64,000 nucleotides of DNA, taken from the IMG/VR virus record IMGVR_UViG_3300013947_000004, one strand, 5' to 3'. The notes below the pieces were generated by a model. The model had not been told where the DNA came from and ran no database searches. It saw only the letters and a list, made by a program, of their open reading frames with translations. The DNA comes from a virus. Shown here piece after piece: positions 1 to 64,000 of this stretch (position 1 is the stretch's first letter; every line of letters starts with the position of its first letter). Position numbers and translations under genes: made by a program.

Positions 1-46
1 AAGCCCCACCCCCACAAAGGGGCGAATGATGGGGGGGGTAGGCAAG

Positions 47-122
47 AATGGCTTAACCATGCGGTTTATGGGCTGTTTATTTATGTATAGTGGCTACAAA
101 TGGCTTAGTTATGCGGTTGATG
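47..122 (+). repeat. two 24-nt imperfect direct repeats AATGGCTTA-NNN-ATGCGGTT-N-ATG (47-70 and 99-122)
   Basis: Read directly; 20/24 identical, 52 nt apart. A partial third copy GGCTTAACCA lies at 367-376. Confidence 0.6.
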
Positions 123-129
123 CAGTTTT

Positions 130-760
130 TATGTGGTTTGATATACTGTAACCATCCCAAGCGGGACGGAAACGAAACGCAAAGGACGCCCACCGAGCTG
201 GGTTGTAGGAATACAAGGTCGGCTCGACGCAATAGTAAAAAGAAAAAAAATAAAGCCCCAGCCGTGAGGCAAACGGGTTGTTCTTTGAGAACAGAATATG
301 GTATCTTCCACCGGAAACGGTGGGAGTTGGCGACATAAAAAAGTTGCCGTGGTACCCGATGAAAACGGCTTAACCAAGCCGTTGGAGGGCTAAGCGTCAG
401 ATAGCCATGGTAGGCGGCGTGAGATTCGCGGTGTTGTTGCCTGAACTGGCTATTTAGTAGCCGGGAATGATAACGATTCTAATGGCATATTAAGTTGCAT
501 GCCTAGTGAGGGATTATCAATAATCAGAGGTACGTATGTATACTAGTCGTATCGAGGCTAAGGACCGGGAACGGTGCTTCTGGTTATGGTCGATGTGTCT
601 AGGGTATGGGAGTAGCGGATAGATACTTCTTATACTCTATATACTGTAACCAAAGGAACGGAATGTAAGTTTTTTCGCCCCGCTCGGAGTTGTGAAAAGA
701 CTTACATTTTAGACAAATAGATTGTCGTGCCGGGGGACGTTAAACACCGGCCCATGCTCA
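130..760 (+). ncRNA. candidate large structured non-coding RNA (family not identified)
   Basis: About 630 nt with no SD-preceded ORF, visibly GC-richer than the flanks. GNRA-capped stems on the + strand at 308-323 (CCACCG-GAAA-CGGTGG) and 564-575 (ACCG-GGAA-CGGT). Further hairpins at 364-383 and 729-751, and a 15-bp stem at 662-676/694-708. Confidence 0.3.
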
Positions 761-918
761 ATTAAGAGCAATTAAATGTATCCCGAGAAATCGGAGAATG
801 GAGAGGGAAAAATGAAATATTACATTTTGGAAAGTTGGGACGGGGTTCTATTTTTTGGAGGTGGTATAGAGAAAGAGGAATGTTAATCACCGAAAACAAA
901 GAAAGAGGGAATAAAAAC

Positions 919-1035
919 ATGACAACAACAAAAGAAATTAAAAACGAAGATTTGGTGCGGCTTTGGAATACATACTGTGATGTAGAGCACCGTCCCAAGG
1001 AACTTTTTGGTTTCAAAACCCGTTATGATTCTTGA
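919..1035 (+). CDS. small hypothetical protein (38 aa), N-terminal W-N-x-Y-C motif family
   Basis: ATG 919 with SD AGAGGGA 8 nt upstream. LVRLWNTYCD resembles the N-termini of 2351..2710 and 5702..5986. Confidence 0.35.
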   Translation: MTTTKEIKNEDLVRLWNTYCDVEHRPKELFGFKTRYDS

Positions 1036-1044
1036 TTTCCCGGT

Positions 1045-1079
1045 AGAGAAATCCGCAATGGATTGTCTCTATTTTCTTT
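1045..1079 (+). terminator. rho-independent terminator
   Basis: AGAGAAATCC-GCAA-TGGATTgTCTCT stem followed by ATTTTCTTT. Confidence 0.55.
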
Positions 1080-1110
1080 GGAACGGGTACTGGGAAAGGA
1101 AGTGTTAATC

Positions 1111-1239
1111 ATGACAGAATTAAAAAATTTAACCCCCCACGAAATTAATATTTTCGTGGACGGAGAACATTATATGGACATCCCTGTTTCTAGGATAATT
1201 GCAAGATGTTCCCAGGGTTTTTCTTGTAAGGGGGTGTAG
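1111..1239 (+). CDS. small hypothetical protein (42 aa)
   Basis: ORF MTELKNLTPHEINIF... with a weak SD; ends 3 nt before the next start. Confidence 0.3.
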   Translation: MTELKNLTPHEINIFVDGEHYMDIPVSRIIARCSQGFSCKGV

Positions 1240-1242
1240 AAA

Positions 1243-1896
1243 ATGAAGTACGAAGAATATATTGTTGACGGCGTTACCTATTGCCGTATCAATAAAACAG
1301 AGGCAAGAAAGATATACAATCAAGGAAGAAATGTATATCTTTGCCCTGTTCATATGAGATTAGATAGCCCATGGTCGGGAATACCTTACATAAATAATAA
1401 AAAGGATATGAGAGCAACTTTTAATGACCGTATATGCCAATACGAGATTTACAACTGCGACAGCGAACGCGGACAATACCTTAAGTACTTTAGGGAGGAA
1501 ATAATTATGAGAAAAGAACAAGTTGTAAAAAAATTGAATGAATTGTGGCTTAAAGTCTGCAACAAGCCGGGGTGGCGTCGTGGCGTATGCAAATACGCCT
1601 ACATCATTCTACGGCATGTAGATGACGATGTGGAATTACACCAGCTGGGGCTTTCAAAAGTCCTTTTAAATGGGGCGGAAAACTGGAAAGAATATTCTTA
1701 CGGGGGTTGCGCCCTTATTTATGACGGTGATATAGCGGAAGCATTATGCACCCAAAAAATGCTAGAAAAAAATAAGCACGGAGAGAAAGCCCCTAACGGA
1801 CGTGACAATTGGTTAGATGTCCAGTCCCGTGCCCTGTTCCACGCCTTTCAAAAGATATACGGAATTGTGGCTTCCGAAGCAGATGGGAAGTTATAA
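1243..1896 (+). CDS. hypothetical protein (217 aa)
   Basis: ORF track; SD GGGGGTG 6 nt upstream. No domain recognised. Confidence 0.6.
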   Translation: MKYEEYIVDGVTYCRINKTEARKIYNQGRNVYLCPVHMRLDSPWSGIPYINNKKDMRATFNDRICQYEIYNCDSERGQYLKYFREEIIMRKEQVVKKLNELWLKVCNKPGWRRGVCKYAYIILRHVDDDVELHQLGLSKVLLNGAENWKEYSYGGCALIYDGDIAEALCTQKMLEKNKHGEKAPNGRDNWLDVQSRALFHAFQKIYGIVASEADGKL

Positions 1897-3191: not shown

Positions 3192-3364
3192 GTAAGTACC
3201 GCAAAGATAAAAACGGGAAGCACTGGCAATCATTTGCCAGTCTTACCCCTTGGAATAAGGGTGTTTACATTCTTGAAAGTGTTGTAGACACCCTTAAAAT
3301 TGCTTTGTACTTTGTTGTAGGATGGTTCTTGTTTAGTTGTCTAATTTGCATATTAGGGGGGTAA
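3188..3364 (+). CDS. small membrane protein (58 aa)
   Basis: ATG 3188 with SD GGAGGTGA. C-terminal hydrophobic segment LYFVVGWFLFSCLICIL. Confidence 0.5.
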   Translation: MSKYRKDKNGKHWQSFASLTPWNKGVYILESVVDTLKIALYFVVGWFLFSCLICILGG

Positions 3365-3367
3365 AAT

Positions 3368-4579
3368 ATGAGAATACTGCATATTGAAAAGGACTACGCT
3401 ATAGTCCAAGGGAAAAGTAAAAAAACAGGAGGCATTATTCCCGTCGCTATCCCTACGTCGGAATTAGCCTACCCAGTTACTTACAAGGGAAATGAATATA
3501 AGAAAGAAGAAATTTCCTTTTGTTCCGATTGCGGAGATTTTATCCCAGCCGGGAATAAAGTTGTAATACAGGGCATGGTACTTTGCTCTGGCTGTTCTTG
3601 GAACTACATTCCTTGCACTAAATGCGGTGAAATCCACAACAAGAAGGTCGATATGGAATTTGTGGACGGAAGTTATATCTGCCACAAATGTATAGAGAAA
3701 GACGACTCTATACAGCTTTGCGATAGTTGCGGAGAATTTACCCATGTAGACAATCTTTCCAAAGTTGACGGTCGTTATATATGCCATGAATGCCTACATG
3801 TCATATACAGAGAATGTATAAAAGAGTATCACCTCTCCAGGAGTGTCCAATACTACTCCACACCTTATAAATCGGATACTCGGAGAAAAACAACCAAACT
3901 GTATTTAGGAATGGAGTTGGAAATGCCTTTCATCGGAGAGGATAATGGGGAACTGGCTTACAGTATCTTGAAAAATCCATACCTAAAAATAGAAAAGGAT
4001 ACCTCTATCAAGGATGGATTTGAGGTGATATCCGATGCCATGACCTTAGAAGTTTGGCAAAAAGAAGGGTTCAAAAGTATTGGTAACGCCGTATCCCTTG
4101 CCAAGAAAGAAGGGTTTAAAGAACACTTTAGTAGTGGAATTCATGTACATTTCCACAACGAGCCGTTTACACCAGAACAGCTAAAAAATATAGGGGCTTT
4201 CGTAATGCTCCATTATATCGACTGTATCAGATTTGGAAGGCGCGACCCACTCCATTTAGATTTTTGTGAGTCTATAGATGATACAGGGAGTATAATGGAA
4301 GATTGTAGAGGGCATAGAATGGCGGTTAATTTCGAACATCCTCTACATACAGAACTACGATTCTTTGCCACGTCGACAGATTTAAATCATATACAGGCAA
4401 TCTTGGAGTTTGTGTATTGCCTATGCATGACAGCTCTAAGAGTAAACAAACTATTCGAATGGGAAGACTTATACCAAACAGCGAAAAGTAGCGGAATATG
4501 CCCCCATTTTATAAAAGAATATGAAAACAACTTTAATTGCAAAGAAATAGAGGGATACGATTATACACAAGTTATGTAG
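3368..4579 (+). CDS. Zn-ribbon repeats fused to an amidoligase (Amidoligase_2-like) domain
   Basis: The N-terminus has four CxxC...CxxC pairs. The C-terminal half has LGMELEMPF, DGFEVISDAMTL and SGIHVHF, matching my recollection of the amidoligase family. Confidence 0.55.
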   Translation: MRILHIEKDYAIVQGKSKKTGGIIPVAIPTSELAYPVTYKGNEYKKEEISFCSDCGDFIPAGNKVVIQGMVLCSGCSWNYIPCTKCGEIHNKKVDMEFVDGSYICHKCIEKDDSIQLCDSCGEFTHVDNLSKVDGRYICHECLHVIYRECIKEYHLSRSVQYYSTPYKSDTRRKTTKLYLGMELEMPFIGEDNGELAYSILKNPYLKIEKDTSIKDGFEVISDAMTLEVWQKEGFKSIGNAVSLAKKEGFKEHFSSGIHVHFHNEPFTPEQLKNIGAFVMLHYIDCIRFGRRDPLHLDFCESIDDTGSIMEDCRGHRMAVNFEHPLHTELRFFATSTDLNHIQAILEFVYCLCMTALRVNKLFEWEDLYQTAKSSGICPHFIKEYENNFNCKEIEGYDYTQVM

Positions 4580-7791: not shown

Positions 7792-7813
7792 AGCCGGGGA
7801 TTATTCCCCGGCT
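7792..7813. terminator. bidirectional terminator hairpin between convergent operons
   Basis: AGCCGGGGA-TTAT-TCCCCGGCT, flanked by an A-run on the left and TCTTTATTT on the right. Confidence 0.65.
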
Positions 7814-8259
7814 TCTTTATTTGTTTCCTCTTTTTCAAATCGGGATAATGCATCACGACTGAACCGAGATTCGATAGACACATATTTTGCCGTCTGTGTT
7901 TGATTTTTGTTAATCGGATTTAATCCAGCCCTATCAAGCATATCTTTTGTAGCTTGGAATCGGACTGATTCTGATTCGGCGTTTCTTGCCAAGTCTAGCA
8001 TGTTCTCTTTCATTTCCTGTGCTTCGTTCAAGAAGCTTTTCATCATTGCTTTCTGTCTATCTTCTATCGCCGTCTGGATTACTTTAAACTCCCCAACTTT
8101 ACTCGACGGGGCGTATCCTGCCACTTCCAGAGCTTTGGATTTAGAGCCGTGTTTCATATATTCTGTAACAAATTTATTCTGTTGCTCGGTAAGATTGCGT
8201 TTCTTCTTTTTTCTTCCGGGCTTTTTAAAAAAATCATGCTGTACACCTTTATTACCCAA
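7801..8259 (-). CDS. terminase small subunit-like HTH protein (Terminase_2-like)
   Basis: LTEQQNKFVTEYMKHGSKSKALEVAGYAPSS matches the remembered TerS P27-type N-terminal HTH. TTG start with SD AGGAGGTGA. Confidence 0.4.
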   Translation of the reverse strand: MGNKGVQHDFFKKPGRKKKKRNLTEQQNKFVTEYMKHGSKSKALEVAGYAPSSKVGEFKVIQTAIEDRQKAMMKSFLNEAQEMKENMLDLARNAESESVRFQATKDMLDRAGLNPINKNQTQTAKYVSIESRFSRDALSRFEKEETNKEAGE

Positions 8260-9564: not shown

Positions 9565-11782
9565 TTACGGTTTCTGATAAAATCTTAATCCAGCTTCTTT
9601 TTGACGGTCTTTCGAGTACGAACTGATTCGTTTTAAATATCCAATAACCCGTGTTGCATAATCAACATTTTTAGACCCACACTTTGTACAATGGTCTTCC
9701 GTGTTGACATTAATGTACCCACAATCGTTACAAACAGTCATTAAGCAGTTAAATGTCCAATAATTACAACCCAATTTACCAGTGATACACATTAAACTGT
9801 AAGCCTGTTCCTTAGTAAGCAACTGAGCAATATTTAAATGACAAGCCGACCCGCCATCTAAGTATTTAACCGTATTTTCACCATGCAATGCAACTTTATC
9901 AAGCAACGTCAAATCTTGATTTTCTACAGGATAGAAATATGAGTTGTAACAGTCTCTTGGTACATCTAATCCATCATGTTTATCCCATTGTGCATTTTTA
10001 ACTCCTAATCCCTCAGCCATTCTGTTACTTTTATGACCTATGAAACTTACCCTACCAACTCTAACTCTTTATTTCTTCTCGCCTCAAGAGCTTCCTCTGC
10101 CGTTTTCGCATTTTCCTCAGCCTCACCACAAAAACAACATTTCTTCATATATTCCTCCCCCCGGAGGATAAGTTTCATAGGCGGCCACGGTTCTTCCTAA
10201 AGTGTCTTTACACTTGACCATGGCTCCAGAGTTTCATTTTGTTATATCTCTGGTTCAGACTATCGCATAACCTCACTAGGAGGCCCCCCTTTATTTAGTC
10301 GTTCACGCTACCATTACGCTTGCGCCTTGTTATCCACTTCTGGAACTTCAAGTCAATTAAAAGGAGTTTTTTATGATGGGTTATGTATTATCCCACCAAG
10401 TCCCCACTCATTTTAGGGACAAATTCTGTATTAAACATGCACCCATACGTTTCTGATGCTTTTTTATTGCAACCATGGATTACTTTTAAACACTTCGCTA
10501 CTTCTCCCTGATATTTTTTTATATCGTCCTGAGGGTTGTATCCTTTATATTCCATTGCTTCCAACATACCATTGATACCGATAGTGCAGAATTGATGGTC
10601 GAAATTTACAAACCCTGCTGTATATGCAGGAAGCATACCTTGGGAAATATACCATTTAATAACTTCCCTGTGGGCGTATAAATACTTCTGAACTCTCCGA
10701 ACAAGCTCTTCGAAATCTTCCCCATGAGTTTCATAGTTTTGTACATATCTGTTCATATTGATTGTAATAACTCGGCATGAGCCTGTACTTACTCCGCCTG
10801 CCCCTAATGTATAGGAAAATGTATTATCCGCTAATTCGTTACGTAATCGGCAACACGACGCAAGGCTATCTGCACTACTTGATTCATACAAGAAGAAAGA
10901 CAAACCTTTAGCCATATCTTCTGCACGCTTGTAAGCAAAATCTTTATCGGCAGGAGTTTTATTCTCATCAAGAAGCATAGCCGCCGTTAACACTGGGTAT
11001 GTAAGAAGTTCTTTTTCTCTTTCTTTTCGGAACCAGTCCATAAAGAAATCTTGCAAATTACTCAAGGATTCCCAATCTGGTTCTGACCCGTCTGGGAAAC
11101 GGAAACCTCTAAAAACGGAAGCGAAATAGTATTTATCGAATACAGAAATATTCCAAAACACACTTTGATTTCCCCGTGCCGCCGCTGGTTGGTTCAAAGC
11201 GTACACAACACCTTGCAACTCTTGGGCAATTTTCTTTGAATGCCGTTTCAAATAATAATTACCGTATTGCTTACGGGCGAAATAGTCGAAATACATTAAG
11301 AACTCTACGGTGGCTGTCGCTCCTGCCCAGTTCGTAGCAAGCTGATATACCAAGTTAACAAACGAGCCACAAAAGCTCTGCAAGTTCTTTGGAGCTTTGG
11401 AAGTACCTCCCAAACATTTCGTTCCTTCGAGTAGAAAGGGATACATCGTCACACTCGCACAATATGGGAGAAACGCCGCCAAGGTTTCATCATGTACGTA
11501 AATAAGGTGTTCCTCAATATCTTTCAAATATCTATTAGCTAGTTTTTCGCCGAATAGTTCTTTAATCTCATCGTAGATAATCTTACGGCTAACTTGAATG
11601 TTTTCAAACTTCCACATTTCTTCTCTTAATGTTCCCATATTCTTTTCAGAAACATTAGAATTGGAGTCTACAAGGGAAGCCGTGGCGTTATTTTGTTCTC
11701 CTACATAATACTTAATGTAATCTACTTTCTTCCCAATTTGTTCTGGTGTAAGCCAGTTGAAGTACTCTTTTTTGTTACTCAT
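9565..11782 (-). CDS. nrdD: anaerobic ribonucleoside-triphosphate reductase NrdD, interrupted by an intron (exons 11782-10415 and 10017-9565)
   Basis: Exon 2 has the Zn ribbon CNDC...CTKC and the glycyl-radical motif RVIGYL. Joining the exons gives ...NTEFVP|AEGLGVKNA..., 606 aa in total. Confidence 0.85.
10018..10414 (-). mobile_element. group I intron (ORF-less) in nrdD
   Basis: The 5' exon ends GUCCCU. Intron GGGGAC (10405-10400) can pair with it, giving U.G at the splice site. The intron ends in G (10018). There is no SD before exon 2. Confidence 0.65.
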
Positions 11783-33243: not shown

Positions 33244-36200
33244 CTACTCACTAAATGCTTTAGCTGATTTAGCCAAACTCTGAAGTTCTTTATTGTTCTT
33301 CGGGATAGATTTCATCTTCATGTCTATGGAAGTCGTATCTTTTGTTTTTAGAACTTTCACAATTTGGGAATCTGTCATACCATAAATTTTAAGAGCATCG
33401 TAATTTTCCCCATTCGGGTTTTTTATATACTCTTGTTTAGCTTTAGCGACTTCTGCTGTATACTTTTTCTTCATAACCCCTAAAACTTTATTGGCGTCAG
33501 CGGCGTTATTTTCGCTAACAGGTTTAAATCCTAAGAGCTTCATGAATCTGTCCGTTGCCGAATAATGGGAAACTGTATCCCCGTAGCTATTTTTGTAGTC
33601 CCCAGAAATGGCACTTTGGATTTGCCCTGCACGAGGAGCTATCTGTTTGAGGACTCCAGTGAATGCGGCAGGAACACTTTCCGCTCCCATAATAGCTTGA
33701 CCAACACCTTTTGCTGTACTGTACGTCGGGCCTAAACTTGGAGTAAGGGCATCACCCATCCCGATACGAGAGGATAAGTTAACTCCCGCTAATGTGGGAG
33801 CTCCATACAGAGCTACGTTTACGAGTGCTTTCTTAGAAGCACTTCCCCCTGCCCAGTCAATCATAGCTTTTCGCATCATAAGCCCCGGGCTTGTCCCAGT
33901 AACAGAGTCGATGACATCATCAAATAAATCAGCCGCTGGTGCCCCTGTCGCCCCTGTAAGAATCAACATTGGAACGAGGAATTTCACATTCTCTTTCAAT
34001 GTATTATTTCTCATAAAGTTGATTGTAAACAGAGGATATTTCTGGAACTGTAAGAGTAGTTTACCAGTCTGCCCCGCCATAGCAAACGCCTGAGGGGAAT
34101 TAACAGGGCTATAGTCAAAGTTCGTTTCTGTTACAGTTTTCTTCGCATAATCCATTGCGTACTTTTCTTTTACATCTTCCATACTAATCTTTCCGTTAGA
34201 TTTCTTTACAATGGATTTATAGAGAGCATCTTTTTTATCTTTTGGTAACGCATCGAAGTTATCTTTGCCTTTTATATATGCTCCAATAGCCGTGGCTTTA
34301 CGAGCAAAAATATCACCTTTGTTGAAGAAATACATGGACTTTTCTGCAACATCTTCGAGGGAATGCCCACCGAGTACTTTCCGTTTCTTTTCAAATGCTC
34401 CCGGTGTATGTCCAATATCTTCAGCCTCTATTGCAATGCTTCTATCATTAATCCCGACGTGCTTAAATAACTTGTCATACGTATCTTTCTTTCCTTGGAG
34501 CTTAATCCCTTGAAGCAGGTACTTTTCGCCAATTTTAGCGTTGGCATTCAAGAGCTGTGCCGCCTGCACAATCATAGCAGATGGGTTTGCCATACCTAGT
34601 TTTGTGTAGTTCTGTGTACGAATAACTTTTCTTGTAAGGTCAAAATACGGGGTGTCTGTGTGATGGCGTCTAGCAAATCTCCCAATAGCCCCCGTCCTAT
34701 TTTCTATCTTTCCAATAAAGTCTGTCATGACACTGTTAACAAGATTATCAAAAGCAGAGACGGAACGAGGAGCTTCTATCGTCTTAATATATGTTTTCAA
34801 GAATTTCTGTTCGTTTGTAGCAGGAGGGTCGTTTACATCTCTTCCGTACATTTCTTTGTAAGCCGCTGTTGCTTCCGCCTTAAACTTAGCTTTAGCTACA
34901 TAGTTAGCCATTGTGCCAAGGTATCTCCATGTAGAGTCTTCGACATTTTTACTAAACCCATTCATCGTTTCGGGGTTATCTAACCGACCTTGGAAGTAGG
35001 GGTTAAACTTTGCTTTCATATTGGCATTGTTAATTAACATAGATAATTCATCTTTACTAATTGTTTCAGAGGTTCTTCTGCGTAGTTTATCTATAAGCTT
35101 GGTATTTTTCATTTGAGCTTTTACCATCTCTACAACTCGGTTATGAATCGCATTCTTGGTATTTGAGTTCCATTTCTTCATAATCGTATTTGCTCTATCC
35201 ATAACATCTTTGACGGGGATAACATCTTTATCTTTGAAGATTTTAGACAACATAGCTCGCTTTAACTGATTGTTATATTCTCCTTCTGCAACATCATCGC
35301 TGTCTTTTAAATAACCTTCTTCTCTCAATTCTTCTATTTGCTTTGGGGTGAGCCGCTCTGAGCTATTAAGTTTTGTAGATAATGCGACTGTGTCCATGGG
35401 AGTCATTTTGAAAGATTTAGCTTTTATTTCTCCATCCTCTGCCCCCTTATTAATATTCTGAACGTATTCTTCTGCGTCCAAAGCGTTGTAGAAAGAATTT
35501 GTTCTTACCCAGCTACCGTCGGAATCTTTTTCCATAACGACGTAGGGCAAGTGGACGTGTGGGAAATATCCATTACGTTTCTTAGGTAGTTTCGTAGCCG
35601 CACCTGCGTCTATTGCCGCACGGACAGAATCGTTATAAATATCGTCAAAGAATTTTTCATTCTTCGCAAATGCATTAATTACACTCTTGATATTTTCTGG
35701 TTTGTACGAGGAATCCCCGTATCTCCCGTCAATCTGGTTTAACATTCCAGTAACAGCCCGTGCATAATTTCGTTTAGCGAAACTGTTAGCGGACTCTTCG
35801 CTCCTGAATGCGGAACTCCCTTTGGAGAGGGCATATACAGTAAAGCCACGGTTTCTTTCGGAGCCAGCATCTTCCAAAGAATCTCGGAGGGAGCCGACCA
35901 TTTTATATTCCCCAGATTTTTTAAGCTCTGCTACTTTTTTAGCGGCTTCCACACTTGACTTGTAATGTTCTATGTACCCGTTATGGTCTAAGGCTAAGTA
36001 TACATTGCCAATCTTCTGTACCTGCATAGGAGAACGACCCATTTTATCTGCGTGCAGAATAAGTCTATCTAATGCCGCTATCTGGGATTTGTTCAATCCT
36101 TTACGGATGTCAAGGTATTTCTGCGTATATTCTAATGTCTTGTCCCGACTCTTCCTATACGCTTCATCAGCTAATTCATAGATGTGTCTTGCCTTCTTCG

Positions 36201-39200
36201 GTAGGTATTTTTCAAAAATTTCTTGCGGATTTTTTAAGAATCTGCCGATAGTCCCCAACTTGTTATCAGACTTAATTTTACTGCCAATAATGGAATCTAA
36301 AGCTCCACGGATAATGGCACTTTTTGTGGCGTCATTAGCATCTTTCACTCCGTGTTTCCGTACTTGTTTTCCGACGATTTCTTGTTTTTCCTTCTTTAAC
36401 TGAGCTTTACCAACCTGTTGCATTGGGGAGCTTTCTCTTTCATATACTTCTCCAGATTTGATTTTACTAAATACTTCCTGCACCGATGGTGTGCGTTCGG
36501 AAATAATGCCAAGTTTGGATGCCATATCTTTAATCTTATTCCAAATGCTCTTGAATATGCCAGATTTCGGAATTTCAGATTTGCCTAACGCCCAATCACG
36601 GTATGCGTCAGCTTGCACTTCTTCATTAGTCCCAAAAGCTTTTTCGAGAGCTTTTATTTCGGAATCTTTCAACCCCATCATTTTGGCCACATGGAACGCT
36701 TCGTGGAAAGCCGTTCCTTTCCCTGTACCATTAGCCAACTGAACATAGATATTATCCCCCTTGTTTTGAGTGTATCCGAGGACTGTTACATTCTCCGACC
36801 CTTTAATTCCATGTTCTTCTTTTGCTCTTTGTAACTGCTCCCCAGTAAGGAATACCTTGTTAACAATATCAAAGGTTATCTTTCTACCGTTAGGCATTGT
36901 AAATTCTACAGAAGTGTTTGTCACGTTGGTTATTTTGGCGTTGGGGATTATATCTCGGATTTCTTTTTTTGTATTTTCCATGTGAGATTGTGGCACATCC
37001 CCAAGTTGGGATTTGCCAAAAATTCCATCAAGGACTTCTTTTTCTTCTTTGGAGATTTTCTTCCCTCTTTGTCTTATATTCTTTCTTGCTTCTAATGCCT
37101 TTTCATCATCCGCTTTTTTTATTTCTTCTGATTTTTCAGACTCTTTTCTTTGTATGTCGTAAGCAAGTTTTTCTTTCCCTGTCAGGGATTCTCTAAATCC
37201 GTCAGGCTCCTTCCCCCCAGTAGCGAGGGCGTTTTTGATAGTGACGGTTTTCCCATCTTTGCCAATTTCTATAGAAGTCTTCGAGCTGGATGTAATCTTA
37301 TGTTCCTTTTCGAGGTAGTCCAACACATCATCTTTTTCCGCTTTGCTTAAAGGGACGTCTTTCCCGTGCCAATCTTTTACTTTCCCAGAGGGGATGGTTA
37401 CTTTTGCGTCGAAACTGCCTTCCCCGTCTTTGAATTTAGAATTGGAAATAGTAACAGGATTCGATTTCTTCGATTCCAATCCCTCTACTTTAATTCCCAT
37501 GCTTTCTAACTTAGCTAATTCTTCTTTGGAGTATGTCTCCAACTGTCTCTTTTGTAAGGCAATCTTCCCAGATTTTTTAGCCTTTTTAATTTCGTTTTCT
37601 GCGTCATAGTATTCTTTTACACTGTTAGGGATAACGTCAGGATTATTCAGTCCTTTATCATTTACTTTTTGTCCTTTGAATTTATCGTAAAGAGGTTGGA
37701 ACTCTTTCTTAATTTTAGCAACTTCATCCGGATATAAGAGAGAGTCTATAACAGCGTTACGGTTTCTGTTAGTGGGAACTTTGTCTCCATGGATAGCTTC
37801 ATGCACTCTCTGAATAAACCCTTTCACCTTTTTAGTCCCGCTCATAGCCATACGTGCATTTTTTCTATCTTTAACCGATGTCTTGGGGGTAGGTGTAATC
37901 TGTTCACTAACTTTCGGTGTATTCTGAGGTAGTTGTTCTACTTTCTGAGCTTTGGGAGTTTTTTGAACTTTCCCACCATCTTTAACAGTATTGATTGCAT
38001 CAATAACCCGTTTACGGTCTTTAAGAGAAAGTTTCTTTAATTCTGCGCTAACTGAAGCTCTATTTTCAGGAGTGCTAGGGTAACTACTGGAATCCTTTCC
38101 ATTTTCTTTCAGGTCTTTAATCATAGCATTAGCTGATTTTTTAGACTCTTTCATTACCTTAGCTCTTGCATTTTTTAACTGCTGTTTTTGGTTAACGGAA
38201 ATGGGTAAGGAAACAATTTCTTTGTTATTTTCGTCCATGTATTGAGACTGGACACCGTTCTTCTCTAAATCTTCTTTAATGGATGCTACCTTGTTGAATA
38301 CCTGTTTCCGTTGCATTTTTTTGCTTTGTTTTGTAGCTCTATTTGTTTCAGCCGTGATAACGTTCTGAATTTTTTCATGAGAAGCATCTACCCCAAGTTC
38401 GGATAATTTCTGTTGTGCCGTTTCGGATAATTTACCGTCTGGGGCGTAGTAAATAGAATTAGTGCCATTTTCCCGCAAATCTTTTTTGATTTCGTTTTTA
38501 ACGTCCTTTACTTTAGCTTCTTGGTTAGTTCTTGCTTCTCTAGCCCTTTTTTCTTTTTCTCTTACTTGTTCCCCATATTGGTTAATAAGAGCTACATCAG
38601 GGGACGGAGATGTTGCATTGGAAACGTATATTTCGGGGGGAGTATTCCCCAAAGCTTTATCACGAGCAATTAAATCGTTTGCACTGGCTCGGTTAGCTTC
38701 GTCTACTGCCCGTTTATTGATAATATCAATAACTCCTTTTGCATCTGCTGGAGTTTGGATTTCTGGGAAGTCTGGGGATTTAATTAAACCTTCAATAGCC
38801 TGTTTACGTTCTTGTCCTTTTAATTCGTGTGGGGATTCAGACACTGGGTTTACAGAAAGGCTACGGAAATTTCCGTCAGCATCGGTTGTACCTGCTAACT
38901 GCAAAGCCATATTAGCCAAAGTTTGATTCTTTTCGAACGTGGGGTCAACATTTCCATTTTCGTCTGTAAAGAGAGTTCTTTCGTAAGTGTCACGAGGAGA
39001 TACTGTGCTTAATGTATTTGTTAATTCGTTTACCCTTGCGTCAGTAGGCAAATCAGCTTCACTTGTAATTTCATCATTTACAGTTATTGGACTATTTGTG
39101 ACAAGGTTGTTGTAGAGAGTAGTCGCATCTTCGTTGCTTAAACCCGCTAAAGAATCCCCTTCTGCATTTTCTCGGAGTTCTTCTCTTGCTATATTTATTT

Positions 39201-40365
39201 CTGGGTTTTGGATTTCCCCGATACTGCTTTGTTCTTTGCTATCCTCAATAGATTCGCTAATACGCCCACGTCGATGACCAACCGAACCAAGAAATGCAAG
39301 AGGCCCGAACCCAATAGCGGCTTGTGCCATTTGGTCTTTAGAAGAATCCTGCATATCGAATGGATTGTATTCTATCGGCGTATCGTTGATAGAATAGTTT
39401 TCCAACTCATTCTGCAATCCTTCCGTGTAAGATTCGGCGGCAATACCCGGAATACCACGGGTAGCAAACCGTTTAAGTAATCCCGTATCTGACCAGTCGG
39501 CAACCTTTTCACCTGCATTAGCAATGGCATTTACAAGTCCCGAACCTTCTTTTTCTGCAATCCGTTCACCAGAAGACAATAATCTGCCGGGGGCTTTCAT
39601 AACCCCTTTAACCATACCCATTTCGATACCGTTTTGGATTGTACCTAAGAGCATGTTTACGCCGAAGTCGGTCATTGCGCTATCCATTGCAGAATCTCTA
39701 TCCATCCCTTGAGAGATAGCATCTTGGTATGTCTGTCCAGTTTCCCTAGTAGCATCAATAAAGCCGCCGATGGCGTTCTTGGCGGCAAATTCTCCAACAA
39801 CCTTACCGCCATCAGCTAAAGCTCCAAGAAGTTTACTTCCACCCGATACAGCTCTGCCTACTTCGCTAGCTTTTTCTGCGAGAGAAGCCGCACGCCCTGC
39901 CATGCCTACTGCACGGACGGCACCTCTAGCACTAAGACTTGCAACAGAACTCATCCCGCCAGTAATAGCTAATGCGGCTAAATCAGGAGCTACATTACCA
40001 ACAGTCATACCTATTGTGCTTGTTAAACCTTGCGGGTCGGTAACATATTCCCAAGGATTGCTCTTTATATCTTCCCAAGAATATTCTTTTGTGGGTGCTC
40101 TGCCATATTCTAAACTCCGCCCAAGGTTAGAGAGTCCCTCCCCGATACCAATATCGGGAGTGCCTAATTTATCGCCAAGGACATCTAAGCCAGCACCAAA
40201 AGTGTCTAAAGTTCCGCCGAGTCCGTATATTGCTGAATTTAAATAACTGTCAAGGAATCCCCCATCCCCGTAATGGGGGGTAGGGGCTAAGTCTGGATTA
40301 AGGGCGTCATTTCCGAACGCTGAACTTACAGCATAACTATATGGGTATGCACCTAAAAGTGCCAA
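33244..40365 (-). CDS. giant virion or ejected protein (2373 aa), tape-measure/internal-core-like, with HExxH zincin motif
   Basis: TTG start. Gly/Ala-rich hydrophobic N-terminus, a K/E-rich region with three ~55-aa KDLxENG repeats, FHEAFHV at nt 36691-36705, and hydrophobic segments near the C-terminus. Confidence 0.6.
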   Translation of the reverse strand: MALLGAYPYSYAVSSAFGNDALNPDLAPTPHYGDGGFLDSYLNSAIYGLGGTLDTFGAGLDVLGDKLGTPDIGIGEGLSNLGRSLEYGRAPTKEYSWEDIKSNPWEYVTDPQGLTSTIGMTVGNVAPDLAALAITGGMSSVASLSARGAVRAVGMAGRAASLAEKASEVGRAVSGGSKLLGALADGGKVVGEFAAKNAIGGFIDATRETGQTYQDAISQGMDRDSAMDSAMTDFGVNMLLGTIQNGIEMGMVKGVMKAPGRLLSSGERIAEKEGSGLVNAIANAGEKVADWSDTGLLKRFATRGIPGIAAESYTEGLQNELENYSINDTPIEYNPFDMQDSSKDQMAQAAIGFGPLAFLGSVGHRRGRISESIEDSKEQSSIGEIQNPEINIAREELRENAEGDSLAGLSNEDATTLYNNLVTNSPITVNDEITSEADLPTDARVNELTNTLSTVSPRDTYERTLFTDENGNVDPTFEKNQTLANMALQLAGTTDADGNFRSLSVNPVSESPHELKGQERKQAIEGLIKSPDFPEIQTPADAKGVIDIINKRAVDEANRASANDLIARDKALGNTPPEIYVSNATSPSPDVALINQYGEQVREKEKRAREARTNQEAKVKDVKNEIKKDLRENGTNSIYYAPDGKLSETAQQKLSELGVDASHEKIQNVITAETNRATKQSKKMQRKQVFNKVASIKEDLEKNGVQSQYMDENNKEIVSLPISVNQKQQLKNARAKVMKESKKSANAMIKDLKENGKDSSSYPSTPENRASVSAELKKLSLKDRKRVIDAINTVKDGGKVQKTPKAQKVEQLPQNTPKVSEQITPTPKTSVKDRKNARMAMSGTKKVKGFIQRVHEAIHGDKVPTNRNRNAVIDSLLYPDEVAKIKKEFQPLYDKFKGQKVNDKGLNNPDVIPNSVKEYYDAENEIKKAKKSGKIALQKRQLETYSKEELAKLESMGIKVEGLESKKSNPVTISNSKFKDGEGSFDAKVTIPSGKVKDWHGKDVPLSKAEKDDVLDYLEKEHKITSSSKTSIEIGKDGKTVTIKNALATGGKEPDGFRESLTGKEKLAYDIQRKESEKSEEIKKADDEKALEARKNIRQRGKKISKEEKEVLDGIFGKSQLGDVPQSHMENTKKEIRDIIPNAKITNVTNTSVEFTMPNGRKITFDIVNKVFLTGEQLQRAKEEHGIKGSENVTVLGYTQNKGDNIYVQLANGTGKGTAFHEAFHVAKMMGLKDSEIKALEKAFGTNEEVQADAYRDWALGKSEIPKSGIFKSIWNKIKDMASKLGIISERTPSVQEVFSKIKSGEVYERESSPMQQVGKAQLKKEKQEIVGKQVRKHGVKDANDATKSAIIRGALDSIIGSKIKSDNKLGTIGRFLKNPQEIFEKYLPKKARHIYELADEAYRKSRDKTLEYTQKYLDIRKGLNKSQIAALDRLILHADKMGRSPMQVQKIGNVYLALDHNGYIEHYKSSVEAAKKVAELKKSGEYKMVGSLRDSLEDAGSERNRGFTVYALSKGSSAFRSEESANSFAKRNYARAVTGMLNQIDGRYGDSSYKPENIKSVINAFAKNEKFFDDIYNDSVRAAIDAGAATKLPKKRNGYFPHVHLPYVVMEKDSDGSWVRTNSFYNALDAEEYVQNINKGAEDGEIKAKSFKMTPMDTVALSTKLNSSERLTPKQIEELREEGYLKDSDDVAEGEYNNQLKRAMLSKIFKDKDVIPVKDVMDRANTIMKKWNSNTKNAIHNRVVEMVKAQMKNTKLIDKLRRRTSETISKDELSMLINNANMKAKFNPYFQGRLDNPETMNGFSKNVEDSTWRYLGTMANYVAKAKFKAEATAAYKEMYGRDVNDPPATNEQKFLKTYIKTIEAPRSVSAFDNLVNSVMTDFIGKIENRTGAIGRFARRHHTDTPYFDLTRKVIRTQNYTKLGMANPSAMIVQAAQLLNANAKIGEKYLLQGIKLQGKKDTYDKLFKHVGINDRSIAIEAEDIGHTPGAFEKKRKVLGGHSLEDVAEKSMYFFNKGDIFARKATAIGAYIKGKDNFDALPKDKKDALYKSIVKKSNGKISMEDVKEKYAMDYAKKTVTETNFDYSPVNSPQAFAMAGQTGKLLLQFQKYPLFTINFMRNNTLKENVKFLVPMLILTGATGAPAADLFDDVIDSVTGTSPGLMMRKAMIDWAGGSASKKALVNVALYGAPTLAGVNLSSRIGMGDALTPSLGPTYSTAKGVGQAIMGAESVPAAFTGVLKQIAPRAGQIQSAISGDYKNSYGDTVSHYSATDRFMKLLGFKPVSENNAADANKVLGVMKKKYTAEVAKAKQEYIKNPNGENYDALKIYGMTDSQIVKVLKTKDTTSIDMKMKSIPKNNKELQSLAKSAKAFSE

Positions 40366-54824: not shown

Positions 54825-55144
54825 TAGTTCACCCCGCTACGGGAACCCGGATTGCATGTCCGGTACTCTGGGTGTTTCCAAAGCCATCTATCTAATACAT
54901 TTTTAGCTTCTATATCATCCACGCCACGCAACTGCATATAGCGTTTAAGTTCAATGTCAGTATAGAATAAAGGTTTGGGGATAGAAGCAATTCGTTTACC
55001 TTTCTTCCCATCAATCCAACCTTCTTTACCAGACATTCTTGATTCGTAACATTCACGAAGAACAGCCCCCTCATCCCAACTATGTTTTATTCTGAAGGCG
55101 TGGGTCTTTTTATCAATTTCCACGTCACTGTGAATCAATGCCAT
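54824..55144 (-). CDS. hypothetical head-associated protein (106 aa)
   Basis: ORF track; first gene after the MCP terminator. Confidence 0.5.
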   Translation of the reverse strand: MALIHSDVEIDKKTHAFRIKHSWDEGAVLRECYESRMSGKEGWIDGKKGKRIASIPKPLFYTDIELKRYMQLRGVDDIEAKNVLDRWLWKHPEYRTCNPGSRSGVN

Positions 55145-55182
55145 TTAATCACCCCTTACGCAAAACCTACAGTTTGTTTTTA

Positions 55183-55213
55183 TACAAAAATAAGGGGCTT
55201 CCGAAGAAGCCCC
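55183..55213 (-). terminator. rho-independent terminator after the capsid gene
   Basis: Minus strand reads GGGGCTTC-TTCG-GAAGCCCC followed by TTATTTTTGT. Confidence 0.75.
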
Positions 55214-55219
55214 ACTAAA

Positions 55220-57191
55220 CTATTTAGAAATGCCTTTGATACGTGCAGAAGCAATCGGGGCTGTACATTCCAATGTAACAGAACCAGTAATTACTTTCTG
55301 ACGATAAGTACCAGTACGAGGCGGATTTTCCGTGTGGAACGGAATAAGGTAGCCTAATTTCCAATACTGGAACTCAATCAAATCGACAACATCGTCAGTA
55401 TACATACGATGTGCGTTTACGTCAACTCTGCCAAAATCGGTTTCTATCCATTACCTTTGGCTATACCCCATATTACTATGGGAACTGACTATCCCTTAAC
55501 CTAGGCAACATTCGGAGCTTTTAACATTTCCTCTAAGGGCATAGCTCTTTTATGTTTTCTTACGGACGCTATTTCCACAATCAACTCTTTGGGGTACTTA
55601 TTCCTAACAATTCTCCCCTTACTATCTCTTGTAAATAAGTTTTCTTCTCTTTCTTTTATAAAGTTGAGAACAACTTCTGCATTATGCTGTTTTACAGAAT
55701 TGAGATAAGGGTAAACCATAGGAATAACACCTTTTACTCTCGCAAATCTATCTATTCTGATATTACATCTTTTTAGATGCTCTGGGTGGTTTTTATCTAT
55801 TACCCAACTTGCTTTATATCCAACCCCAATATCATCAAGGACTTGCATTACTTTGTTTATTACTCCTTCGTCTGTATTTGTAATACTAACAAAAGGAACA
55901 ATTACAAGGTTTCCTGTCTTACGAGTTGTTACTTGGAAGGATATGCTCCCTTCCCCATCCATAATTCCACCTAACCAAGCCAAATCTATCGGGTCTGGTT
56001 TGTGGAAGTCTAGGTTGTCTGCATTATAATATTTATAATCTATTGATACGTTTTTTGCTTTCAAATATTATACAACTCCTTCGTTATTTAGAAATATCCA
56101 AACATAGAAGTAATGTTAGTCGATAGCGAGCTGTTGGCTCACGCCACATACCCGACGGGATTACCCTTAGCATTACCTGTAGGGCTTCCCCGTTTGAGCA
56201 GACTTAATTTATCCGTCTATCACTAGGCGGCGACGCAATAGAACCAGTTTACGTCAATGACTTCGACAAGGTCTTTACTTTCCATCGGACGAGTTTTCTG
56301 TACACCCTGCGTCCATCCGGAGATTTTACGTTTGTTCTTCCCGGAGCAAACAACGGTATCAATACTGCCACCACGTTTCCAAACTGTCTGCATTGCATCA
56401 TTCAGAAGGTCAAATGTGAGTTCACCTTTTGTAGATGCTGTTGCGGCATCAATCAAGTTCTGGTTAGTCAAAACCATTTTAGAAGCGGCAACTGCGGCAG
56501 ACGGTTTAATAGCAGTTTCAGAAGTATTAGACATCATAGTCTCCTGCGGTGTGCTATGTACGGTAAAAGAGTTTGCGTCAATTACATGAACATAATATGT
56601 GGTATTTGCTTTATAATTGGAATCCAATACACCACCAGATGCCGCCGCAAAGATAACAGGGTCACCGTCAAATAATTCATGACCAGTTACGGTTACTTTA
56701 CCATCTGTGTCAATGCTAACTACTGGTTTTGTAGCTTCCAAGAAGTACGCAATACCGCCAAAACGTGCAGGCTGTGTATCTTCAGCCTTAGCTACTTTGT
56801 TGTTTACGATAGCGTATTCCAAGTCACGGGCAGTTTCTTTGCCGCACTTAACAAACTGGTAGGACAGTTCATCTCGTACACCATATTTCTTAACTGCCTG
56901 TGTGGTATCGGTCGTACTATAACCGTTGAGGAACTGTTGACAGTAGTTAGCAGAGCGTGTACGGGGACGTGCTTTCTGTACATCGAAATCAACAGCTTCA
57001 AGTGTAGCGTTGTCACGTGCAGGACGAAGGTTATCGTTCAACCATTCGTGTTTAGTGGATGTTACGGAAGTATTTCCGAATCGTTTAGAGTAGAACGTTT
57101 CGTCCGGGTCAAGAGCAGTGATGAAGTCACTAACATCTTCGATTTTCCCTACAATAGTCCCGGATTTCACGGTTTTATCAATAATTGCCAA
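55220..57191 (-). CDS. major capsid protein (HK97-fold type), interrupted by an intron (exons 57191-56251 and 55448-55220)
   Basis: Sits after the scaffold gene. Exon 2 (IETDFGRVDVNAHRMYTDD...ASARIKGISK) has no start or SD and reads like an MCP C-terminus. The joined product is 389 aa. Confidence 0.7.
55449..56250 (-). mobile_element. group I intron carrying a LAGLIDADG homing endonuclease gene
   Basis: The 5' exon ends UGACGU. Intron GCGUCG (56236-56231) can form P1 with U.G at the splice site. The intron ends ...GGUAAUG. Boundaries are inferred and may be off by a few nt. Confidence 0.6.
55501..56064 (-). CDS. LAGLIDADG homing endonuclease (intron-encoded)
   Basis: LAWLGGIMDGEGSISF motif; TTG start after AAGGAG. 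Confidence 0.75.
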   Translation of the reverse strand: MKAKNVSIDYKYYNADNLDFHKPDPIDLAWLGGIMDGEGSISFQVTTRKTGNLVIVPFVSITNTDEGVINKVMQVLDDIGVGYKASWVIDKNHPEHLKRCNIRIDRFARVKGVIPMVYPYLNSVKQHNAEVVLNFIKEREENLFTRDSKGRIVRNKYPKELIVEIASVRKHKRAMPLEEMLKAPNVA

Positions 57192-61820: not shown

Positions 61821-62083
61821 AACTCCTCCTCTATTACAAATAAATACCTCCCCGCCACGAGGAGGCCCCCTTTTGCAAATGAAAACAAGGAAAACCTTAT
61901 TTAGCATAGGAAAAGCAGGGTATATTTTAAGAAGTCCCCGTAGAGATACTTCCTTGGCTGTTAAAATTTCAGGCTTATGCAGTCACGTCTGACCAAACCA
62001 ACCTTAAAAAGTATGCCCGTCCGTTTAGGATAGAGCTACTTTCGAGGGTCTACCCTCCCAGCATAATTTAATGGTTTCTTTCT

Positions 62084-62157
62084 TGGCGAGGACTGATAGA
62101 TTCGAACTACCATTAAGGGTTTTGGAGACCCCTGTTCTTCCATTAAACTAAATCCCC
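62084..62157 (-). tRNA. trnW: tRNA-Trp (anticodon CCA), CCA end encoded
   Basis: Folded by hand: 7-bp acceptor, 4-bp D stem with GG loop, anticodon stem GGGGU/ACCCU, loop CUCCAAA, T arm GGTAG-TTCGAAT-CTATC, discriminator G, then CCA. Confidence 0.85.
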
Positions 62158-62292
62158 AAGATATTCTCTTACCAAACTCTCCTGCCGTAGGATACAAAGT
62201 TCAGAGAAAAGCTTTAATCACCTCCTTTCAACTACGGCAAAGTAATATTTGCTTTAGTTGTCAAAAGGTATCACCTCTTTCAAAGTGTTTAT

Positions 62293-64000
62293 TTACATAC
62301 TCCCGGCGAATGGGATATCTTCCCCACCGACTTTTTCATAACTGCTAACGGGAGCAAAGTATACTTGGTCTTGGTATGCCAAAGCATCAATTAAATCATC
62401 GTGTAAAGATTTAGGGAAAGCAAGAAGTTCTCCTTCTAATTCTCCGAGAAAGGAAGCTCCCATGGGGAACCATACCGTACCTGCTTTAAATCTTGGCTGG
62501 ATGGCTTTAATACGTTCTTCCTTCTTTTCTTTTGCTTCCAAATCTTTTACCGTGAACCAGACATTCCTCTTAGGCATTTCCTTTTCTACAAAGTGGGATA
62601 ACGCCGCTTGGTACGCAACCTTTTCCATTCCTACATATACTGGCTTATATCGAACCACGGCATCAAAGATGGCATCAATCGTATCGGAAGGATTCCACCG
62701 TCCGTAGTTGATATCGAGGATAAACCAATGGTTATCGGAATTAACTCCTACCGTACATACAACCGTGTAGTCGGCAGTTTCTTTTTGGGAAATAGCCAAG
62801 TCAACCGTAGTGAATATATTCATATCCTTTGTAGTTACTTCTTCCGGCTTGTAGTATTTAAAATATTCCTTTTTGAATAATTGGCTTTCGGGGGAAATAG
62901 CAATACACATTTTTTCTCTTTCCCACACATCCAAGTTACCGATACGACGAAAGGCTTCCCGTTCAGCTTTGATTTCGTCTGAACTCCATCGTTCGGGCCA
63001 TACGGAATTTCCTTCTGCGTCTAAAATAGGAATGCGGACGCCAATAAACTTCAAATCCTTCTGATTTTCAATAACCCTCTCTATTAAGCATTTCTCACCT
63101 AAGTTATTGCCAATCATAAAAATTCTTGTTTTCTTACCAAGGAAGTTTACATCGGATAAAAACCATTCCCAGTCGGATTCTTGTACTGTATCCGATTTAG
63201 CATCTTCAATATCCTGCGGGTCATCTATTAATACAATAGACGGACGGCAGTCATGTACATTCAAACCACGGATAGAAGCCCCTTTGCCATAGGCTTCAAA
63301 GCGCACCCACATCTCCTCTTGGTTTTCGTCTGTTACCACTACTTCAAACCCAGTCTGGGATTGTTCTACAATCTTAACCAAATTCATAGATAATAGTTCG
63401 TTACTCAGCCATTCATCTTCTATTTCTTTTAATCTCTTGCTAGCCAATCTTTGGTTAGCCATAATAAAGACTACGTACCGTTTGTCTCTAGAAGGGAATG
63501 TAAGGCAATGGAAGGGGAAAGCTCTAAGCACGACCCCGGAATTATGAGTTGGGATACATCCTGTACCGCATAAAAATAATCCCGTAGGACTGTCAACCTT
63601 AATACACATGGTTGGGACAGATTTGCAAGGGGTTACTTTCTTTACGGTTCTCATTTTTGACCGGGCATCTTGTTTCTCTTGGATTAAATAATTCTTCCTC
63701 TTTAACCTTAGGAATTTATTTGTTGTTTTAAAGGAAATGTCAAAATGTGGAAAACATTCTTTCCCATATAAATAGGTTTTGCTTTCCGTCATAGTACATT
63801 TAAGCCCAAGGCTTTTAATTAAATAAAATGTTCCTTCGGCTAATCTTTTATTCGTATTAGTAAAGGTGATAGTCCCTTTCTTCGTCCCCGTCTTAGCAAT
63901 AGTCCCATCACTATCAACAAGTCCCGCCAATAAATCCCATCGGTTTGCCTCGCTATCGTAAAAATATTCCTCTGGGATATGTTTGTCGTGGAATAATTTT
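62293..64000 (-). CDS. terL: terminase large subunit (5' end outside the window), interrupted by an intein
   Basis: The C-extein begins at 63540 (SGVVLRAF...), with IVLIDDPQD and a C-terminal nuclease-like region. The frame stays open to nt 64000. Confidence 0.8.
   Translation of the reverse strand, partial: KLFHDKHIPEEYFYDSEANRWDLLAGLVDSDGTIAKTGTKKGTITFTNTNKRLAEGTFYLIKSLGLKCTMTESKTYLYGKECFPHFDISFKTTNKFLRLKRKNYLIQEKQDARSKMRTVKKVTPCKSVPTMCIKVDSPTGLFLCGTGCIPTHNSGVVLRAFPFHCLTFPSRDKRYVVFIMANQRLASKRLKEIEDEWLSNELLSMNLVKIVEQSQTGFEVVVTDENQEEMWVRFEAYGKGASIRGLNVHDCRPSIVLIDDPQDIEDAKSDTVQESDWEWFLSDVNFLGKKTRIFMIGNNLGEKCLIERVIENQKDLKFIGVRIPILDAEGNSVWPERWSSDEIKAEREAFRRIGNLDVWEREKMCIAISPESQLFKKEYFKYYKPEEVTTKDMNIFTTVDLAISQKETADYTVVCTVGVNSDNHWFILDINYGRWNPSDTIDAIFDAVVRYKPVYVGMEKVAYQAALSHFVEKEMPKRNVWFTVKDLEAKEKKEERIKAIQPRFKAGTVWFPMGASFLGELEGELLAFPKSLHDDLIDALAYQDQVYFAPVSSYEKVGGEDIPFAGSM
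63541..64000 (-). mobile_element. intein C-terminal part with LAGLIDADG domain (partial, continues beyond the window)
   Basis: LLAGLVDSDG motif (the track's M is a TTG Leu). Ends CIPTHN before S+1. Blocks F/G closely resemble the DnaB intein. Confidence 0.8.

Follow-up and report, generated by a model that had tools for sequence, protein, structure and literature searches.

Does the gene-free stretch at the head of the early region of an uncultured phage hold a large structured RNA and, if so, of what kind? The stretch, positions 130–760, belongs to a DNA of 64,000 nt (IMG/VR record IMGVR_UViG_3300013947_000004, analysed whole and called the window here) that makes up most of a ~65-kb phage genome; six near-identical public contigs (64.7–65.4 kb) carry the same genes. 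The source is an uncultured gut phage with a ~65-kb genome and an SU10-type portal and capsid. In the six contigs the stretch sits within a gene-free gap of 1.3–1.7 kb, around which the terminase and the early genes diverge. We collected ~170 loci of relatives from IMG/VR and JGI metagenomes through their terminase, anchored them on an 18-nt box and labelled them with L-numbers. As comparison with these relatives and folding models suggest, ~154–712 may be the long untranslated and structured head of the rightward early transcription unit, an unclassified RNA of the phage's own, a reading to which we give about an even chance. The stretch is a probable new structured early leader or non-coding RNA outside the known Rfam families, whose promoter, transcript ends and any function we infer. 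An earlier note on this DNA had proposed a candidate large structured RNA here. That proposal stands as the best reading of a segment that is free of open reading frames (ORFs), GC-rich, located past a promoter-like block and supplied with GNRA-capped stems on the plus strand, while the identities that the note entertained, ROOL, GOLLD or an intron, do not stand.

The decisive mark of strand-specific structure is the density of tetraloop-capped stems. Counting stems of at least 4 bp with a GNRA or UNCG cap in window 155–800, against 500 dinucleotide shuffles, revealed seven GNRA-capped stems on the plus strand where 0.93 were expected (s.d. 0.92). None of the 500 shuffles reached seven, and the minus strand of the same segment has no such stem. 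The capped loops lie at 208, 314, 322, 510, 568, 665 and 787; the stems at 510 and 665 are weak AU/GU helices, and that at 322 overlaps the 314 hairpin. The coding sense-strand background is 1.2–1.5 tetraloop-capped stems per kb, and the leader region ranks first in tetraloop density among 2536 sliding windows on both strands. Neither DNA palindromes nor decaying DNA readily account for an excess confined to one strand. The raised GC content within an AT-rich genome agrees with this, and so does the folding of the plus strand: its minimum-free-energy z-score was −4.8 to −5.8 against shuffles, and it folds better than the minus strand (−193/−218 versus −149/−172 kcal/mol; z −5.4 versus −3.5). 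The second-highest GNRA/UNCG density was seen at window 55101–55850 (minus strand, five stems), with a fold z-score of only −2.1; this segment includes a UUCG-capped terminator in the 55145–55500 intergenic gap.

Stems at 305–326, 564–575, 364–383, 660–710 and 399–455 appear in both the minimum-energy and the partition-function folds. Most of the hairpins picked out from the sequence in the earlier note were recovered there: the GAAA tetraloop stem placed at 308–323 is a 9-bp hairpin at 305–326, the hairpin at 364–383 is present with 8 bp, as is the GGAA tetraloop stem at 564–575 with 4 bp, and the 15-bp stem 662–676/694–708 can be extended to 19 bp at 660–710. Two needed adjustment. The long-range pairing of ATAGCCA with TGGCTAT forms with its second arm at 447–453 as proposed, its first arm lying at 401–407, one base off the proposed 402–408. 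At 729–751 a 5-bp GCCGG/CCGGC stem is possible, but its bases pair elsewhere in the global fold.

The stretch is not coding by any check that we applied. No credible ORF is present in 130–760, as had been claimed, and the three ORFs of the ORF list do overlap one another on both strands (90–338 on the plus strand, 109–336 and 129–377 on the minus strand). Apart from these and two of 31 aa, 90–760 contains no ORF of 30 aa or more, and those overlapping in 90–377 have no ribosome-binding sites. Open frames of the region gave no Pfam or PHROGs match, and the longest of them (80–478, minus strand, 133 codons) gave only two weak repetitive matches when searched with phmmer against 1.84 billion representative proteins. 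Reading any single stop codon as sense opened no consistent plus-strand frame, the first early proteins of relatives found nothing in the stretch by tblastn, and gene callers placed no gene there in five contigs. By the ORF, stop-codon, Pfam/PHROGs and phmmer checks, the segment between the promoter block and the first gene is thus untranslated. Its higher GC content was also borne out (0.471 in 130–760 versus 0.393 in the window, the 98th percentile of 600-nt windows); the body, 155–712, has a GC content of 0.48 and is purine-rich. A hidden coding sequence, whether for small proteins, with a recoded stop codon or as a gene on the minus strand, appears very improbable to us. Stop-free minus-strand frames of 86–133 codons, a 28-codon ORF at 536–622 with a weak Shine–Dalgarno (SD) sequence and, with TAG taken as sense, minus-strand frames of 143–184 codons in four of the inserts described below could be taken for such genes. 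Stop-codon scarcity is, however, expected of C-rich minus strands, the standard code reads the late genes normally and a T620A variant removes the stop of the 28-codon ORF. Besides the lack of family or database matches and of gene calls in the five contigs, six-frame blastp among the different, unrelated inserts detected no protein similarity in any frame.

Nor does a known RNA family account for the stretch. Rfam models run on window 1–1200 gave no match at the gathering threshold or at E up to 10, and the equivalent region of 29 relatives gave none either. The check suggested in the earlier note, for ROOL, GOLLD and group I/II introns, found nothing at the locus with models that do work in relatives. 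For ROOL and GOLLD no covariance-model match was obtained on either strand (ROOL gathering score, 99.1 bits), and true ROOL (RF03087) served as positive control, scoring 205–218 bits in L089, L090, L091, L092, L098 and L099. In phages and prophages ROOL typically sits beside tRNA genes; the sole tRNA of the window is at 62087–62157, and the stretch has the terminase start on one side and the early genes on the other. The idea of an ORF-less intron in the gene to the left fails as well. That gene is the large terminase, complete and on the opposite strand, with its start codon ~560 nt left of window base 1, and no intron model matched. No exons flank the stretch on the same strand, its right neighbours being independent SD-preceded ORFs of the rightward early region, the first of which start at 813, 919, 1111 and 1243. 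Sister phages do carry ROOL genes, and group I introns occur in L088 and L103, so that a diverged member of a known family (ROOL, GOLLD, a group I/II intron, a riboswitch or a T-box leader) might have been missed by the models. We find this scarcely credible, given the empty Rfam searches in the window and in 29 relatives, the ease with which the same search detects true ROOL and the absence of an interrupted gene around the stretch.

The ROOL genes of the relatives map to L089:5693–6272, L090:5693–6272, L091:3806–4383, L092:2513–3089, L098:4922–5499 and L099:3193–3770. In one sister lineage the ROOL locus is inside a tRNA array, between the terminase and RemA-like/portal genes; the corresponding locus of the window (61908–62292) holds one tRNA, on the minus strand. 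In L011 the place that ROOL takes in the L091 lineage is occupied by ~900 nt (L011:6416–7349) that hold nothing but small, overlapping ORFs and are flanked by the terminase stop and the tRNA array. This segment has no Rfam match, shows 5–8 both-side pair changes in three relatives and is possibly another unclassified RNA. The group I introns (RF00028) are at L088:7660–7895 (84.5 bits) and L103:4732–5062 (78.3 bits), the latter inside the terminase match, which spans 1705 nt versus ~1413.

Comparison of the relatives revealed that the stretch follows a family-wide skeleton of box, block 1, motif 2 and hairpins, present in ~100 distinct relatives. In window orientation its order is tandem repeats, box, D1 palindromes, block 1, hairpin, motif 2, hairpin and first gene. 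The D1 palindromes, one or two in number, are a feature of the window's sub-clade (D1 stands just upstream of the promoter-like block also in L009, L011, L017, L091, L092 and L095), and in most relatives the first gene begins 100–200 nt past block 1. The 18-nt box, ATGCGAAGCCCCACCCCC, is nearly invariant even at 55–64% terminase identity; an exact 12-mer of it was found in 50 of the first 88 loci, relatives at that identity included. A second copy, GCGAAGCCCCACCCCC, lies 226 nt further left in L001 (L001:8604–8615), and in the window the box is followed by a G8 run at 31–38. Block 1, with the consensus TGn(T/G)ATAGTGTARYC, keeps a fixed distance from the box across the family and is a putative early promoter with a start site near 150–156, although a simple consensus promoter scan did not call the site and there is no good −35. 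The 14-nt direct repeat ATATACTGTAACCA that had been noticed in the sequence is indeed exact at 141–154 and 639–652; allowing at most two mismatches, three matches occur window-wide, both exact copies included, versus 0.62 expected. Copy 2 is followed by GGAACGGAA, which resembles GGACGGAA after copy 1. Judged by sequence, the repeat is the duplicated −10/start block of the family and not an RNA motif. Just past block 1, the equivalent of the 5′-proximal hairpin forms in L011, L017, L091 and L095 and covaries in relatives (pairs CG:16/AU:4 and GC:17/CG:4), and motif 2 is found at a comparable position in ~40 distinct relatives.

Between this skeleton and the first gene, the sub-clade with at least ~83% terminase identity carries an ORF-free, GC-rich (0.42–0.53) insert, 450–700 nt long in five of six sub-lineages and up to ~1 kb in L093. 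We found at least six mutually unalignable versions (window/L001, L009/L011/L176, L017, L095, L093 and L089–L092/L098), and outside the L017/L095 flanks no k-mers are common to the six types. L017 and L095 have flanks that are 85–91% identical around unrelated centres; the inserts have therefore been exchanged, not merely diverged. In the window, the lineage-specific material (~498 nt) is bracketed by the two block 1 copies, which suggests that it arose by recombination at this conserved block. The sister inserts resemble that of the window in folding to differing degrees: three of the five lineages had plus-strand z-scores of −5.2 to −6.1, the remaining two gave −2.3 and −3.8, and tetraloop-capped stems numbered four in L011 (P 0.004), four in L093 (P 0.018) and two, two and one in the others. 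In the L011-type insert (three sequences, ~86–90% identical), long invariant runs are broken by variable hairpins that keep pairing. We counted 13 both-side pair changes there, versus 5.9 (s.d. 1.7) in column shuffles and 0–2 in slid controls; one control alignment for these counts was another ORF-poor stretch downstream of the terminase.

Several results weigh against a structured RNA. An RNAalifold-derived structure on the adjacent early coding block also gives 9–13 both-side pair changes, and given this control the L011-type changes are suggestive only. Forty equal-length sense coding windows of the phage average a z-score of −1.7 (s.d. 2.1) and three of the 40 reach −5 or lower, so that the folding z-score alone is not decisive. 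The hairpin at 660–712 was not called by the terminator scan, being AU-rich, followed by four U only and not canonical. The body (~174–640, motif 2 excepted) has no homologue below 99% identity in any collection searched. Blastn of the window region and two sister inserts against GenBank phages gave no match, and nhmmer against 179 loci gave only >99% identical copies, similarity being otherwise confined to window ~−280 to +173. Exact scans of IMG/VR returned, for a 19-mer of the GAAA hairpin, one unrelated chance match in a high-GC prophage and, for a 19-mer of the L011-type insert, known contigs only. The terminase-based collection of loci brought many relatives, none with the window's insert. 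Among the >99% identical copies the body is 1.19% polymorphic versus ~0.24% for coding DNA, which is roughly neutral. None of its eight variants is compensatory, and one, A377T, breaks the 364–383 stem while shifting this sequence closer to D1.

In one rival reading the ~498-nt segment is non-functional filler, left by unequal or illegitimate exchange between two phages at the conserved block, or else by captured foreign DNA or a decayed early gene, and tolerated at a spot prone to recombination without any RNA function. Exact 14-nt direct repeats of the conserved block flank the segment, inserts are replaced wholesale between relatives as close as L017 and L095, polymorphism is near the neutral level, a gene has decayed nearby (1992–2332, frameshifted, with an intact counterpart in L002) and a foreign origin fits the higher GC content. 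On the other hand, no trace of protein similarity is left in any frame, all six sub-lineages have retained, at this one position of an otherwise densely coding genome, an insert devoid of ORFs, the strand-specific excess of GNRA stems is unexpected in decaying DNA, and the L011-type insert combines invariant runs with variable hairpins that still pair. We consider filler unlikely, if well short of negligible.

The A377T variant bears on another alternative, in which the region acts as DNA. It would comprise tandem early promoters, operator palindromes and, close to an end of the genome, perhaps signals for replication, packaging or injection; what look like hairpins would be cruciforms or palindromes bound by proteins. 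Two copies of the promoter-like block are present, as are three D1-like near-palindromes (at 47, 99 and 364), the third of which A377T brings nearer to D1 at the cost of the RNA stem. The 560 nt of the gap that lie left of the window are AT-rich, the GC-rich part starting almost exactly at window base 1, and the invariant box adjoins this terminase-proximal AT-rich region. Two independent assemblies start within 30 nt of the box (window base 1, and contig L006 at window 31), both at the box/G8 run. Box and G8 run could mark the end of the genome or a signal for packaging, unless the G/C runs are just points at which assemblies break; the G8/C-rich run can explain the contig breaks, and the small terminase gene, the usual neighbour of a pac site, is far off at 7801–8259. 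Phage T7 offers a parallel: its left end has ~900 nt of non-coding DNA with tandem promoters A1–A3, and its leader of ~400 nt contains the RNase III site R0.3. As in T7, hundreds of non-coding bases separate the genome-end/packaging side of the window from its first early gene, promoter-like elements of host type are repeated and a structured leader is predicted; unlike in T7, where the leader is conserved and not GC-enriched, the body is hypervariable and the second promoter-like copy seems weak. DNA-level control elements would explain 1–154 and a few sites such as 364–383, but not the 174–640 body; the second block has neither the TG nor a −35, and an excess of tetraloops and better folding on the plus strand are unlike DNA palindromes. 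We therefore regard control at the DNA level as decidedly unlikely.

If the stretch is instead a structured early leader, host RNA polymerase would start at the extended −10 block (139–147) soon after DNA entry. The nascent RNA would fold co-transcriptionally, beginning with the 5′ hairpin, continuing with motif 2 and its hairpin and ending with the insert, a lineage-specific, GC-rich, multi-hairpin body of ~350–500 nt with many GNRA tetraloops. The AU-rich hairpin and U-tract at 660–712 would let transcription pass into the small early ORFs from 813. Alternatively, it may stop or process the transcript, yielding a stable ~550-nt RNA derived from the 5′ untranslated region (5′UTR). In the fold, the 660–712 hairpin is a possible weak or conditional terminator, and it looks like a diverged copy of the GGAACGTG..TTTCCCCGCT..CACGTTCC hairpin with T-run of relatives. 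Candidate functions of the body are early mRNA stability or regulated read-through in cis, or a host-factor decoy in trans. The features behind this model are collected in table 1.

Table 1. Predicted features in and around the stretch, in window coordinates.
Feature	Position	Strand	Basis or remark
3′ part of invariant box, (AT)GCGAAGCCCCACCCCC	1–13	+	alignment of relatives
D1 copy 1, operator-like near-palindrome AATGGCTTAACCATGCGGTT	47–66	.	repeat family D1
D1 copy 2 (AATGGCTTAGTTATGCGGTT)	99–118	.	abuts −35-like TTGATG at 117–122
Block 1: extended −10-like TGATATACT (139–147) and start region GTAACCA	139–154	+	family-conserved
Candidate structured leader or non-coding RNA, ORF-free GC-rich body	155–712	+	predicted
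5′-proximal hairpin UCCC-AAGC-GGGA	155–166	+	mean pair probability 0.95
8-bp helix around 5-bp GGAA-capped stem (203–216)	194–226	+	pair probabilities 0.98 and 0.88
A-rich tract and hairpin 255–270, terminator-like (GCCUCA-CGGC-UGGGGC then UUUAUUUUUUUU)	231–270	−	terminator scan
Motif 2 GTTCTTTGAGAACAGAATA	279–297	+	family consensus (G)TTCTTTGAnAACTGAATA
9-bp hairpin, GAAA tetraloop	305–326	+	pair probability 0.99; place of hairpin after motif 2 in relatives
6-bp hairpin GGCGAC/GUUGCC	329–348	+	pair probability 0.98
8-bp hairpin AACGGCTT-AACC-AAGCCGTT, third degenerate D1-like palindrome	364–383	.	fold and repeat family
Extended stem-loop, 9 + 8 + 4 bp, including ATAGCCA/TGGCTAT	399–455	+	fold
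4-bp stem, GGAA tetraloop	564–575	+	fold, tetraloop count
11-bp helix AGGGUAUGGGA/UCUUAUACUCU	601–638	+	pair probability 0.81
14-nt repeat copy 2	639–652	+	block 1 duplicate without upstream TG; right edge of ~498-nt lineage-specific segment
AU-rich hairpin, 15–19 bp, then UUUU	660–712	+	fold
Three short hairpins	729–794	+	729–751, 755–770, 783–794 (GAAA loop)
First SD-preceded small ORF, 24 codons (GGAGAGGG-N5-ATG)	813–886	+	opens translated early region
Further early ORFs	919–1035, 1111–1239, 1243–1896	+	ORF list

Premature termination is documented to yield 5′UTR-derived non-coding RNAs in other virulent phages, among them 29 candidate 5′UTR-derived RNAs or leaders found by ONT-cappable-seq in Pseudomonas phages (PMC10914365). 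The documented phage RNAs measure ~90–210 nt where sized, are reported to be sequence-conserved within a genus and were seen as transcripts (PMC10914365). The element described here resembles them in lying, ORF-free and hairpin-rich, between a host-type promoter, in this case a putative one, and the first gene of its unit, with a hairpin and U-tract at which a short transcript could stop ahead of the coding part. It is unlike those of Pseudomonas phages in being ~550 nt long, with a body unique to one lineage, and in being known from sequence alone. With ROOL (RF03087) and GOLLD (RF01998) it shares a size of ~500–600 nt, its presence in a phage, a GC content above that of the genome and many GNRA-capped stems, and some members of the same phage clade carry genuine ROOL. 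Apart from the missing covariance-model match, it differs from both in standing at the head of an early operon rather than in a tRNA array and in having no conserved homologue family. The pRNA of phage phi29 is ~120–174 nt long, has one conserved fold and serves a terminase-less, protein-primed packaging motor. It is likewise a non-coding RNA driven by an early promoter (as we infer for the stretch) next to the packaging side, and its sequence diverges strongly among related phages. The window phage differs from phi29 in having an ordinary large (TerL) and small (TerS) terminase subunit and, with its relatives, inserts without a demonstrable common fold.

The turnover of the inserts suggests, tentatively and with no great likelihood, a wider interpretation. 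The clade may keep an early-operon slot for interchangeable, unrelated structured RNAs, mostly ~0.5–0.7 kb long, that sit on a shared 5′ skeleton like 'RNA morons'. The window would hold one of them; each would be transcribed first after infection and would target, in trans, a factor of the host or a defence system. We consider this because the cassette-like turnover resembles that of anti-defence or host-takeover loci, and a trans action on such targets would explain it. To our knowledge, turnover of this kind has so far been tied to protein genes for anti-defence or host takeover, not to RNAs. The finding would gain much interest if the interchangeable RNAs were real.

If the fold is real, the window encodes a large phage RNA that belongs to no curated family and is produced as soon as infection begins, at a locus occupied in related phages by other RNAs of similar size. 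With it, the few large RNAs of unknown function known from bacteria and phages (ROOL, GOLLD, OLE and raiA) would grow by one class or more, and the sister phages would amount to a natural swap experiment. If it is not, the analysis has still mapped the early-control skeleton that an abundant family of uncultured gut phages conserves, and folding z-scores alone have been shown to overcall structure in the phage genome studied.

The minus strand of the leader also carries signals. At 245–270 there is a canonical-looking intrinsic terminator with a 6-bp stem, and weak promoter-like sites lie at 542–513 and 505–476. An antisense RNA from the leader locus is possible. Between early genes of relatives, a hairpin GGAACGTG..ATTTCCCCCGCT..CACGTTCC with a T-run recurs in L009, L011, L017, L093, L095 and L176 (for example on the minus strand of L011 at ~3350–3390), its loop conserved.

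Elsewhere the genome encodes a family-A-like DNA polymerase, a primase-helicase, an anaerobic ribonucleotide reductase (NrdD), tail fibres and a tyrosine recombinase; identity of the portal to the nearest cultured phages is only ~30%. The large terminase contains an intein with a LAGLIDADG homing-endonuclease domain, inserted directly after the Walker A GK (window 62293–64000, minus strand, running on left of the window; L001:5849–8269), and many relatives have an intein-free terminase of 471 aa. A 2373-aa ORF in the structural module (33244–40365, minus strand) has no sequence similarity in PHROGs, Pfam or PDB and could possibly be an injected protein or a virion polymerase. For a neighbouring 217-aa protein the homologue search gave partial matches only (42–60% of the query) and no full-length relative, and an exact look-up of a 42-aa early ORF returned no record. 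The apparent 450-nt gap at 1897–2350 is due to the pseudogene at 1992–2332, where a 113-aa early gene has been frameshifted by a 1-nt deletion; L002 has this gene intact (10750–11091). The small-ORF region right of the leader (893–1040) is mosaic even among >99% identical genomes: the sequence beyond window 893 differs in L001, L002 and L005, and L003 has an extra ORF of 111 aa.

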